The translations under genes were made by a program, and so were the position numbers. The notes beneath the pieces are model-generated. The model saw only the letters and a list, made by a program, of their open reading frames with translations. It was not told the DNA's origin and ran no database searches. DNA of 63,969 nucleotides, counting the filler, from Hausera hauseri (taxonomy: Eukaryota): NCBI GenBank assembly GCA_046269625.1. It is 11 parts of 11 records of this genome, joined end to end, with 100 filler letters (N's around TTAATTAATTAA, not from the genome) between each part and the next. Parts side by side here need not be neighbours in the genome. Positions count along the whole stretch, not along the records: positions 12,169 to 18,933 come from JBJURY010067995.1; 10 more parts are not named here. One strand, given 5' to 3'. Each line of letters opens with the position of its first letter. Position 1 is the stretch's first letter. Positions 13,944 to 18,933 of this stretch are shown here, piece by piece.

Positions 13944-16073
13944 GACGTGTGGGAGGTCAGTTAAAATGAAGCCATTGTGAGTCAGGTAGAAATCGCTGAA
14001 GGTGGTGGTATTATGAATGAGAGCGTATAATTGTGATGTCTCGATGCGTTATGTGACATGTACGTTTCGTATAAAGTTATTATTGACGAAAAGGTAGAAT
14101 GAAAACGGTGATGATAGGGAGTGAAATGGGTAATGTAGAATCTCAACATGATCATTCGAAGTTAAGAGGATTGCTGTTTCATTTGATGAATCTGACCGAC
14201 CTGTGGGCTCCATGTGCTTAATGGATCTGTTGCGTTTATAACTGATGCATACTGAAAGAAGTCGACGATGACTAGAAGGGAACGGACCCTGTTTATAGTC
14301 GGAAATTCTAGTCAGGTGCTCGCTGTCATCAGAAGAATAAATCGGGCTTACGTTGAGATAATGTGGCTTGAATCCACCTCATCTCATTATAGGTACATCA
14401 ATTTCCGTAGATGGTTTAGGTGATGTGCAATTAACAATCCCGCAAAATGATTGGATCATTTCATTAATTTCTATGTGGCCATCATGGAATTCAAGAAATC
14501 CTACGAGTGTAAAATACTTCAGAACATAAAAGCGTAGTTTACCAATTTTCCCTAATAAAGCCAATTTAAATTTCAAAGTAGGCTGATTAACTTTATCAAT
14601 GGTAGTAAGATATCTCGGAAGACTATGTCGTGGACAGGGGCTAAAGTGAAACGACTGTGGAATAGAATGGACGAAGTTTATGATCTGAGGAATAAAGGAA
14701 AGAAGAAGTGTTTTGCTGGTGTGATCTAGAATTCCAAAATCGGCAGAATTCATGCCAGAATAATAGAAAAATGTCACCAAAAAACGCCTTCACTATATAA
14801 CGGCTGTTTCAAAATTCCGAGACAACAGAAAACGAATGGAATTATAAAAAATAAAGAGAAAGTGATACTGCCAAAGAGGACTGGTAGCAAATTCAAAAAA
14901 ATCGAAGTAGTGAATAGAAACTGCGATAACCAAACTTTGGTTAACCCCAATTCTCTTTATACCGGGGTAAATATTTATGGGATGTGAACAAGAAATGTCC
15001 GACATCGCTATATCGCTATAATAGGTACAAATGAAATTGACAACTTTGCCGAAAAATGTTCCAAATAACATCGGTATGACAATATAAGTCATCCGATGTG
15101 AAATCGTGTATACAATTAACAAAAGTAACGACGCGGTTGTCGACAAAAGTAATTTATGTCGCCATTTCGAAAATTTTTGTATGGTATTTATCACGGCCTG
15201 ATAGGTCGTGATTCTCATATCCTCGTCAATTTGAATCTTCAAAAGTGACAGTAAATCAACAATCGCAGATTTATTCATATTTGAAGGGAGTAACCTTAGA
15301 ATGGCAGGAATATAGGTTTTAAGAAGGTCAATTATTCGTTTTCTTTCGGCAGTTATGGCATCATCCGATGCTTTGGTAACGTTTTCCTGTTTCTTCAACA
15401 ACATCGTACGGATAACGTGTTGGTTCAATAATTTTAACATGGTATCAAAGGCTTGTCGAATGAGATTAATGTAACTACAAATGGGGGCTGTGTTCGTGTC
15501 CTTTAGTGTCATGGATAGGTAACTCGATTTGCATTTTGTGGAAATTTGCCGGTGTTGATTTGTTTGTTGATTCAAATCGTTTGTTAAAACTTTGCTTTAA
15601 TTTGATCGTGTAACTCGAATGCTTTGTGATAAGTGATATGATGAGGCTAACGCCTGTACGCCTTCTAGCGGCTGGGAAAACGCAATCGTTGATGAATTAA
15701 TAATGTCAAAAATTGGCTCTTTCTTGGGTGATGGCCCATTAACAATAAAAGGCAAAATTGATTGACGAGGAGTATCCGATACCGACTTTCTTAATGATGG
15801 TAATACTGTGTGTACAAACAAGATACAAGGTGATATCGACCGTCGACGGAATGGTGTAATTCGATGTGATGACAAGCCCGTAAGGAAATTCTGCACAAAA
15901 GATTGTGTATGGACGAAAATAGAACACATGGTGGCATTACAGTCTATAATGTCGGCATCGGTAAACAGACGGGATTTGACAATTGTCCGATAAAATGTCG
16001 TCCAGAATTCAGTAAAGGGAATTTGATTGACAAGGAACCATTTCAGTTCATCGGTCATATTCACAGATGGAAA

Positions 16074-17220
16074 TCAACTTAGGCAACTCAAAATATGTCC
16101 TTCAGCCTGAATTTGATTTTCATCGCTGGATATAATGGCCAACCAAAGATTGCAGTAAGGAGTTAAAAATTCATCACTGAGATCCTGATACAATCCATGA
16201 TCCAACAAAACAATTTCGGAGTTTCTTACAAATGATTTCAATGTGATATATCTCCAGAATTTTGACACAAGTGTCCCTGATTCGGTTTTGGCGGAACGAA
16301 CAAGAATATTTCCTGGATGAGGGTCGCAATCAACGAACCCCTCTTGAAAGATCATTTCACAGAGTTGGTTTAGGGTTCGGAAAACCTCTGGACGAAAAAC
16401 CGAGATATTTGATGTACGAAGAGTCAGTAATTTTTCACCGTGGCAATACTCCATAACCAATAGCTTTTCAGTTGAGAGCTGCCAATAAATTTTTGGAACC
16501 TTCAAAAACGGCAATATTGTTGACAATTTCCGATTTAGCATTTCGGCGTTATGACCTTCGAGAATAAAGTTCAGCTCTTTTGGGAGATTTTACTTCGTTT
16601 CTTCTGCTAACCATGTAAATTTCATTTGTGGGGAAATTCGACTCGCGATTGGAAACAAAATTTCCATGCAATATAAATATATCGTCGAATAATCGCGAAC
16701 TTCTTTATGTTGCACTTTAATAGCAACTTCCGCCTCAGAACCTTTCAGTTTACCATAATGGACTTGAGCCAATGATGCTGTTCCGATAGGTATAGGGTTG
16801 ATTTCAGAAAATATCTCTGAAGGCTCGGAACCTAATTCGGATTTGAGAGTTTGATAAACTTTATCGTAATTCTCATTCAGAAAGTATTCGAAGAGTACTG
16901 ACGTATTCTTTCGGCAAAAGATAAGTCAAGTTGCCAAGATGCTGGCCGATTTTTATAAACAGCCGCCATTCACAACAAACAGATTCAATAATTGAAAGGC
17001 ACATTTCAAATGAACAGTTGAGAGCAATTTACCGCAATCGGGATGATTTGATAAAGTTTTGTAATAAAACTATTTGTAACTACATGTCATAGAAATTAGA
17101 GTGAATGTTGTCTGTCCCAATCCGAAAATAACGTTTCTTTTGAAATAGTCAGATTTCTGGTATATCTTATAAAATGATATCAGAGCTGTTGTGCCAAAAA
17201 TCAAAACTTTAAGAATAAGA
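16074..17220 (-). pseudogene. ADCK1: processed ADCK1/AarF (ABC1) kinase copy
   Basis: NGGCFIKIGQHL, PIGTASLAQVH, VAIKVQH, LPKELNFILEGHNAE, LLVMEYC, DCDPHPGNILVR, LLDHGLY; intronless, several stops. Confidence 0.9.
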
Positions 17221-17989
17221 CAGAAAATCAAACAATAAGGAAAACTGACAATATGAAGATTTGACAATATATCATCTCGATTCTGAAAATGTTTAAAAGC
17301 CATCATCAGAACAATGTTGATTATTTCTTCGTGCCTCAATTTCAACTTAACAAGGAAACCGTGACAAAAACAGCCGCAGGGCGCCCCACAAACAAAAACC
17401 GGACTCACCACATCGTTCCAAATTTCAAGTGTGCATATTTCCATCAAAATCACTAGTGAGAATCTGTATTCCGAAGTCCAAGGAATCCATTCGTCTGTAT
17501 TGTACATAAACTGACACCAATTGTTGTTAATCCATAATATATCCGCATTTGTTGCAGCCCCTTTTACATTAATAATAAGAATAAAATTTTCTAAATTTGT
17601 AACCAGGTTTCGTTGGTGCATCGAAATGTGACACTTTGGATTTCTTTGCACCAACAGTGTGTTTTTGTATTCTGGTAATCCACAACATCTGAAATATATT
17701 GGAATTGATAATATATGCGTTCCTTTGCCTATTCCCATTAAATTTCAAAAAATAAGACTTGATTTAAGCAGATGAAATTTTATTAACAAATGTTCAGAAA
17801 ATCATAAATTTTCAATTCGTAGTTATCGCGTATTTAAAACTATAATTTTCAACACAAAACCAATGAATATTAAATCCGGCCTTTGTCTGCGATCCCCCAC
17901 AGCTGCTTCATGTCACGAAAATTGTACAGAAAGGTGATGGACTTGTTTTATGAAACCGTTGTCATACGTTTTGCAAAGTGTTTTAGGAA

Positions 17990-18362
17990 CAGCATAAAAA
18001 CGCCTGAAATTCAAGGAACATTAACAAATTCTGAATACGAGATTTATCAGTTGAAATGTCAAGAGATAGCTAAATCGAAATTGTCAAATGTCTTTCATTG
18101 TAAAGCACCGGATTGCAAACACTTCGCCGTCTTAGAAGATAAAATATACGACGGATATAATGTTCTTGTTGTCGATCTGTAAATTGTATTTTGTGTTGTA
18201 CGATCCACAAAACAAGGTGAAACATGTAAGGATGATCAGTAAATATCAACAATGATGATAATGTTTGATCTGAAAACTGAGAAATACCTTGAAAGTGAAA
18301 TAGCAGAGGGTAAGTGTATGAAATGTCCTGATTGCGGGTCAATTATTCGAAAAGGTGGTGGC
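17990..18362 (+). pseudogene. RBR E3 ligase (RBCK1/HOIL-1-like) IBR-RING2 fragment
   Basis: FHCKAPDC..., TCKD, EGKCMKCPDCGSIIRKGGG, cut just before the catalytic Cys. Confidence 0.75.
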
Positions 18363-18370
18363 ACTATAAT

Positions 18371-18933
18371 ACCCTCCTCCCGTGGCAGAGTTGAGAAACT
18401 GTAAAGAAAAGGCCTAAGGGAAATTGTAGTATCAAAAGAACAGACAAATGATTTACCTAACAAGTTTTTGTGCGTACAAGTCGTTGTACTCCATCGATGT
18501 TCACCTGTCTGCTATAGTTACTGAAAGTAACGGATTTGTGACGTACCTTCAATGTACTGACTGACTGCTGGTGGGATTTGTCGGTAAAAATATTAGTTTT
18601 AGTGTGATTAGATGTTGTTACTGGGGAAGGTAATACAAAAAGTGGAGAAGATGTGGTTATAGTTAAATTATCCCAGTTTTCTGAGGTAGTTTAGATAGGC
18701 GATAAGTAGAGAGGTGAGGTAAGAATAGGCGAAGGAATATAAATAGGATGTGGAGCAGAAGTAGTGATAAAGGTAGGGGTAGAGGGAAATGTATGGACGG
18801 GGAAGGAATGGAATTGGTAGGTGATGATATAGGCACATAAATGGGAGCAGTCGAAACATGCGTGGTAGACAGAGGAATTAATATCGGGGTAGAGGTGTGT
18901 ACAGGTGAGAGGAAGGAGGTTGATGTCTCGGTT
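18371..18933 (-). mobile_element. PPT and 3' internal region of a CsRn1-clade element
   Basis: Minus strand ACTCTGCCACGGGAGGAGGGT matches ACTTTGCCACGGGAGGTGA at 57811, which lies downstream of an integrase. Confidence 0.7.

Follow-up and report, generated by a model that had tools for sequence, protein, structure and literature searches.

The stretch of DNA analysed here (the window; 63,969 nucleotides from Hausera hauseri, GenBank assembly GCA_046269625.1) consists of 11 records joined by N-linkers, and the element studied lies within the record at positions 12169-18933 (JBJURY010067995.1). It is a Ty3/gypsy retrotransposon copy, placed by its capsid fold and by a protease following gag, with the order protease, reverse transcriptase, RNase H and integrase (PR-RT-RH-IN) taken from a relative (locus L001). 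Read along the minus strand, the record carries the end of a preceding element that belongs to the same family, a polypurine tract (PPT), the head of a long terminal repeat (LTR), an antisense RBCK1 fragment, a long chimeric frame made of host gene fragments, a ubiquitin-like domain (UBL), Gag and a protease. PPT, LTR head, antisense RBCK1 piece, ADCK1, CHCC gag and protease were all named in a first-pass annotation of this DNA and all are present. The two main features of the locus, the single reading frame and the UBL, were both overlooked there.

The chimeric frame starts in a section (17220-17744, minus strand, as for the other parts of this frame; first ATG at 17738) in which no stop occurs from 17744 to 17075, and continues into an ADCK1 fragment (16068-17219; residues ~2-375; Pfam ABC1, E 4e-62, and tblastn), 39-46% identical to homologs in many animals and in gag's frame except where short local shifts occur. 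A spacer (15564-16073) with one stop in gag's frame, against 7.3 expected (P 0.004), is followed by a sense fragment of Furry (FRY; 15147-15563; Pfam MOR2-PAG1_N, E 3e-8, above the cut-off), fused in frame to a DPAGT1 fragment (14463-15167; residues ~122-354; PDB 5lev, E 4e-34). The Furry and DPAGT1 matches overlap by ~7 codons around a Trp-Arg pair, which Furry itself presumably has at this point. The last part of the cargo is a linker (14106-14462), which is open in gag's frame and which a divergent contig connects to the UBL. Searches of 17744-17220, 16073-15564 and 14462-14106 against Pfam and, in six frames, against PDB gave no accepted identity, and Atlas searches gave weak leads only; for the spacers, Din1 (E 0.07, too weak) and STAG (E 0.21) were not accepted. 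No cargo common to other records or loci was found by tblastx. The fragments found support the earlier proposal of host-gene capture by a gypsy element. Furry and DPAGT1 fill part of the intervals left without names in that annotation (14150-16070 and 17220-17990), the three sections just listed staying without a Pfam or PDB match. The pieces in both orientations that it described come down to one antisense piece, RBCK1, the only such piece identified, Furry and DPAGT1 being sense and in gag's frame.

Gag's frame contains 9 stops in 1,213 codons between 17744 and 14106, versus 79, 72, 82, 65 and 80 in the other five frames, and when the sequence was resampled 1,000 times, the most open of the six frames averaged 58 stops and never had fewer than 38. 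All identified pieces other than RBCK1 are sense and in this frame (chance of three identified pieces sharing gag's strand and frame, 0.005), and the three spacers are open in it (P 0.0006, 0.004 and 0.013). The span 17744-12933 (1,604 codons, 11 internal stops) is a decayed single open reading frame (ORF).

The UBL (13890-14105, minus strand; 72 codons, one in-frame stop) ends Arg-Ile-Arg-Gly-Gly, with Met directly next. Gag (12933-13889, minus strand; one in-frame stop) comprises a capsid of the DUF7041 type, a coiled coil and a CX2HX9CX3C knuckle, and a second knuckle lies past it in a shifted frame (12930-12847). The copy ends after the aspartic protease (12392-12673, minus strand; Pfam RVP, E 0.002; tblastn with the pol of L001, E 1e-16), reverse transcriptase (RT) onward being absent from this record. 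An AlphaFold2 model of the UBL, made from a 24-row alignment, matches ubiquitin-family domains with VIA Z 9.0-9.8 and rmsd ~2 Å over ~70 residues, the top matches including the integral UBLs of midnolin, parkin and Dsk2; this model, like the Pfam ubiquitin matches in relatives, supports a beta-grasp fold of ~75 residues. The Gag model matches the capsid of murine leukemia virus (VIA Z 9.7). The CHCC knuckle agrees with membership of the CsRn1 clade, a likely assignment that draws on the knuckle rather than on a primer-binding site (PBS) or RT phylogeny.

Among 1.84 billion representatives searched there were 1,012 matches, 150 of them listed; none of 20 homologs looked up has an informative name, and a profile search of a 5.8-billion set found one protein. 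All 24 aligned rows (19-41% identity) keep the di-Gly, often with Met directly after it and with Pro after it in none, while the residues ahead of it vary widely. In a quick Gag tree of 74 rows, all unnamed and with no reference elements among them, the window falls in a 25-row double-knuckle clade (SH-aLRT 99), in which the UBL is part of the called protein for 22 rows, the other three being short calls. A UBL is also present in a pair of rows outside the clade. Pfam ubiquitin matches were obtained for 7 of 25 proteins scanned, plus L004. The cargo varies: host domains upstream of the UBL exceed the Pfam cut-off in 5 of the 25 scanned (CNOT1 plus DIS3-like, STAG, histone H2A, 5′-nucleotidase, RING), and two further relatives carry Hsp90 (E 8e-10) or, weakly, Arp8 (E 1e-3) by PDB search. 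Four loci were fetched for checking in DNA. L003 has a single 1,303-codon ORF made of a STAG HEAT piece, UBL and Gag, with pol overlapping; in L001, ORF1 is open over at least 796 codons and the 1,128-codon pol is intact, with the full PR-RT-RH-IN order; and L004 has a UBL ahead of Gag, with protein P0137 called from the Met after the di-Gly. The last case suggests that the UBL has been overlooked because gene callers start at this Met. No description of a UBL before Gag was found in the literature within reach, which did not extend to Repbase, GyDB, subscription journals and supplements; PMC2836005, in the passages concerned, deals with OTU/Ulp1 domains, not with a UBL before Gag.

A second element of the family lies elsewhere in the window (8256-12068, plus strand), with a 110-nt GC-rich LTR-like head, a forkhead-like piece in frame with CLIC, a 3′-UTR-like (untranslated region) stretch, an ASCC3-Piwi ORF, UBL-GG and gag. 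The ASCC3-Piwi fusion (9635-11167), with the forkhead-like and CLIC pieces upstream, forms an ORF of 511 codons that a single shift separates from UBL-GG-gag, and the UBL of this record (11300-11525) ends RISGG, then Met. The CLIC piece is closest to fly and nematode forms and is followed by a stop-rich, AATAAA-bearing stretch resembling a 3′ UTR. Together with ADCK1, it indicates as host an invertebrate that lacks close relatives in the protein set searched. At 24060-26957 (minus strand), a 966-codon ORF combines a Ty3 capsid and a CCHC knuckle with the beginning of a fusion glycoprotein of viral type; one stretch of it resembles Bcl-2 (E 9e-4, below the cut-off), and a ubiquitin-like stretch is seen by eye mid-way along it.

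Contigs of a public run (X1), possibly the source sample, cover 30 of 30 bins of the region: of 5,679 contigs, the bulk of them outside those listed individually, 5,349 are <99% identical and most are 80-95% identical. Up to 18 contigs are found at Furry sites, and summed depth over the cargo, which is not a copy number, is 26-790 versus ~5-8 for single contigs. Divergent contigs bridge the spacer-Furry, Furry-DPAGT1, ADCK1-spacer and linker-UBL joints, the Furry-DPAGT1 adjacency recurs in another copy (joint 15143-15208), and part of this copy's lesions are absent from other copies. Judged from these sequences, several old copies of the chain clearly exist. No RNA data set was among the listed holders of the sequence. 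The likelihoods attached to alternatives here and below are answers to separate sub-questions and are not expected to sum to one. An assembly or amplification chimera might be suspected from the shortness of the record, from matches to one public run only (49% of words), possibly the source, and from the whole stretch being spanned by none of the X1 contigs listed, but random joins would not have one common frame, divergent copies bridge the four internal joints and the same architecture is intact in L003, making an artefact highly improbable.

The locus is probably a dead CsRn1-like Ty3/gypsy copy from a clade in which ORF1 consists of captured host fragments, a UBL, Gly-Gly and Gag, in that order. 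Host deubiquitinases would cut after the Gly-Gly and free Gag with its own N-terminus, so that N-terminal additions would be harmless to capsid assembly. Alternatively, the frame might be kept only for Gag-Pol translation and escape from nonsense decay, with the UBL uncut and acting in stability or in proteasome or partner binding, or with the element's own protease freeing Gag. The integral UBLs among the top structural matches and the wide variation just before the di-Gly would agree with this, but the di-Gly is the sole invariant UBL feature across rows <45% identical, and the frequent Met and missing Pro directly after it also argue against an uncut domain, so that this alternative seems unlikely.

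As for the cargo, the preferred explanation is that pieces of host mRNA would enter serially by template switching during reverse transcription. An element could make its own proteins only if a capture left the frame uninterrupted between the first AUG and Gag, and onward into the -1 shifted pol, and in-frame sense pieces would therefore accumulate whatever they encode, selection acting on the open frame and not on the encoded content of the cargo. The antisense RBCK1 piece, lying upstream of the first AUG, either in the U3 of an LTR shared with the upstream element or at the joint of a later deletion, would be exempt from this constraint. No intron-sized gap was found in the ADCK1 and DPAGT1 fragments, and no poly(A) remnant (A or T run of at least 8) in the record under study. 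The second of these would suit cargo acquired as DNA from a host with few introns, or brought by a different type of gene-capturing element, as would an intronless LRR fragment (Scribble/Erbin-like by eye) fused in frame to Polinton-type PolB-like sequence elsewhere in the window (62365-63177, minus strand). Such an origin is improbable, given the coding-to-coding joining of pieces from unrelated genes, sense and in frame, and the 3′-UTR-like stretch behind the CLIC copy of the neighbouring record.

Several observations weigh against capture from RNA in front of a cleavable UBL. The window's own UBLs have no Pfam match and no Atlas match of at least 0.9, the single-sequence UBL model is poor (pLDDT 50), and Foldseek agrees but with E-values of 0.008 or worse. 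The 24 aligned rows were hand-picked for rank and N-terminal length, and the UBL profile matches 26 of 155 proteins, only 3 of them outside the training set. Cargo architecture was checked in DNA for two homologs only, and cases with a single gene, H2A among them, could reflect an insertion that landed in frame within a host gene. Cleavage after the di-Gly is a prediction; lack of introns is no proof of an RNA route, because the parent genes were not seen; and LTR end and PBS are not fixed by a shared 15-nt word or by comparison with shuffled sequence (both below). The LRR-PolB fusion indicates that in-frame chimeras in this DNA are not confined to UBL-Gag.

CsRn1-like Ty3/gypsy elements (CsRn1, PwRn1, AgCR), as described in passages of PMC2582038, share with the present element the CX2HX9CX3C knuckle, the PR-RT-RH-IN order and -1 overlapped gag/pol (both seen here in relatives) and a PPT before the LTR, whereas the element here has two knuckles, a UBL whose di-Gly precedes Gag, and pieces of host genes within ORF1; an N-terminal UBL goes unmentioned in the same passages. 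LTR-mediated retroposition in animals and maize Bs1, in the parts of PMC5131818 concerned, likewise involve partial copies of multiple host genes in LTR elements, amplified after capture and mostly sense, but capture there replaces part of an ORF and leaves the element non-autonomous, while here cargo is added in frame before Gag, with gag and pol intact in L001 and L004. In the ubiquitin inserts of cytopathic pestiviruses (passages of PMC8310069 and PMC13517609), host RNA pieces, sometimes mosaic, also lie upstream of a ubiquitin moiety, and cellular ubiquitin hydrolases are described as freeing NS3 from the captured ubiquitin (PMC8310069), which leaves the downstream protein with a correct N-terminus. 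Pestiviruses are RNA viruses with recent inserts of true ubiquitin, in contrast to an old, diverged UBL that is fixed in a retrotransposon clade and whose cleavage is predicted. Bdelloid LTR retrotransposons with captured ORF3 (PMC5408684) are also gypsy-like elements gaining extra coding sequence, but as a separate conserved ORF3 after pol, rather than as variable fragments fused before Gag.

Gene capture usually costs an LTR element its own genes, and a cleavable UBL cap would lift that cost. If so, autonomous elements could accumulate fragments of numerous host genes within a single translated frame, a steady source of shuffled proteins, and Gag maturation is predicted to depend on host deubiquitinases. 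A bolder version is doubtful: an undescribed gypsy clade in which Gag is a ubiquitin-style fusion cut by host deubiquitinases, and in which the front of ORF1 gathers in-frame host exons and releases multi-gene chimeras that end in a free di-Gly, part of the cargo (Piwi, CNOT1, DIS3-like) perhaps acting as decoys of the RNA-silencing and decay machinery.

Upstream of the long frame, the 3′ internal region of the preceding element (18382-18933, minus strand, reaching the record end) aligns with the pre-PPT region at 57770-58330, itself after integrase. On the minus strand it is followed by the PPT (18381-18372; GGGAGGAGGG, with the surroundings also seen for PPTs at 57824 and 42560), a 3-nt spacer and a 9-nt LTR head, TATAGTGCC (18368-18360), which matches the TGTGGTGCC heads of other copies following PPTs at 57810 and 42577 and then gives way to foreign sequence. 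This is the RBCK1/HOIL-1L fragment (18000-18362, plus strand; IBR and start of RING2; PDB 8eaz, E 3e-7; Pfam IBR, E 0.002), antisense to the element and outside the long frame, with 6 stops in gag's frame, as chance predicts (P 0.37). It is multi-copy, with 3-6 X1 contigs at variant sites. By alignment it ends one codon before the RING2 Cys, in agreement with the earlier statement that the RBR is cut just ahead of the catalytic Cys. The GGCAC microhomology reported there shrinks to the Gly codon GGC (18360-18362), since the RBCK1 parent must continue with Cys and only GGC can belong to both partners; the chance of an overlap of at least 3 nt is ~0.06. Capture of cDNA or second strand, also proposed, has the antisense piece as its sole basis, and this piece, which does exist, lies outside the long frame.

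Two accounts of this junction, and of this junction only, were weighed. In the first, put forward in the first-pass annotation, a microhomology-guided template switch to antisense RNA or cDNA took place 9 nt into the U3 of an LTR shared by two tandem elements. The tandem order of PPT, LTR head and ORF1 supports the tandem part of the claim, as do the related elements sharing LTRs at 39503, 41011 and 42577; the multi-copy RBCK1 piece and a PBS-like word 960 nt past the head also fit, and both LTR-sharing tandem elements (PMC5932611) and microsimilarity switches (PMC5131818) are known, according to passages of these papers. The 3-nt overlap falls below the median of 6 bp given in the latter (PMC5131818), the parent was not seen and the PBS-like word is equalled in 48 of 100 shuffles, so the switch is possible but rather unlikely, being indistinguishable from chance or later deletion at 3 nt and with no bridge among the contigs listed. 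In the second account, the 3′ end of one element came to abut a cargo-bearing element or retrocopy nearby through a subsequent deletion or an ectopic recombination event. This is a serious candidate, if short of probable: this copy is decayed and truncated after the protease, other copies show many deletions over the region and other LTR heads in the window continue as LTR sequence, but no parent-locus intron or intergenic sequence was recognised beside the junction. None of the X1 contigs listed bridges 18362, a partial listing that counts as evidence neither way.

The two ends of an element (two LTRs plus target-site duplication) were not found together in any record or fetched locus examined. 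A PBS-like or LTR-head-like word lies at 17412-17400, 960 nt past the LTR head; within it, a tRNA-Trp PBS-like site with one mismatch (17410-17400), of the type that marks the CsRn1-like clade, is the one equalled in the shuffles, which were window-wide, and could equally be an LTR head. A 15-nt word common to 17370 and 56720 was rejected as an LTR-end signal, as its flanks do not align. The PPT junction at 42577 was rejected as an LTR cut short after 13-25 nt, since it continues as the repeat found at 39503 and 41011, while the same suggestion for the junction at 57810 is unproven. The three LTR-like repeat copies at 39503-42789 (plus strand; starting at 39503, 41011 and 42577) are separated by ~1.2-kb units, the last copy following a PPT; these are short tandem elements of a related family that share LTRs, and the first lies within a PolB-like gene, into which it is inserted. 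In L001, the LTR head after the PPT (5852-5925) is a GC-rich block of ~70 nt that starts like TG plus a tRNA-Trp primer site and is followed by AT-rich sequence. Another GC-rich LTR-like head (56126-56240, plus strand), 79% identical to 8258-8365, is oriented opposite to a fragment resembling a G-protein-coupled receptor (57091-57549, plus strand; by eye, without Pfam support), which is antisense and downstream of a PPT.

Searches of the window gave no matches with Rfam or ARAGORN, and a viral contig search had matches in 0 of 65 stretches. A simple repeat of GAAA/GAAC type occupies ~3.8 kb (20150-23957). A non-LTR element with RT and an endonuclease-like end lies at 29870-35725 (minus strand), with a Ulp1 protease domain upstream (Pfam Peptidase_C48). 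Decayed, mutually similar Polinton-type PolB stretches were recognised by eye at 2587-5287, 37197-39554, 49345-54076 and 60512-62514.

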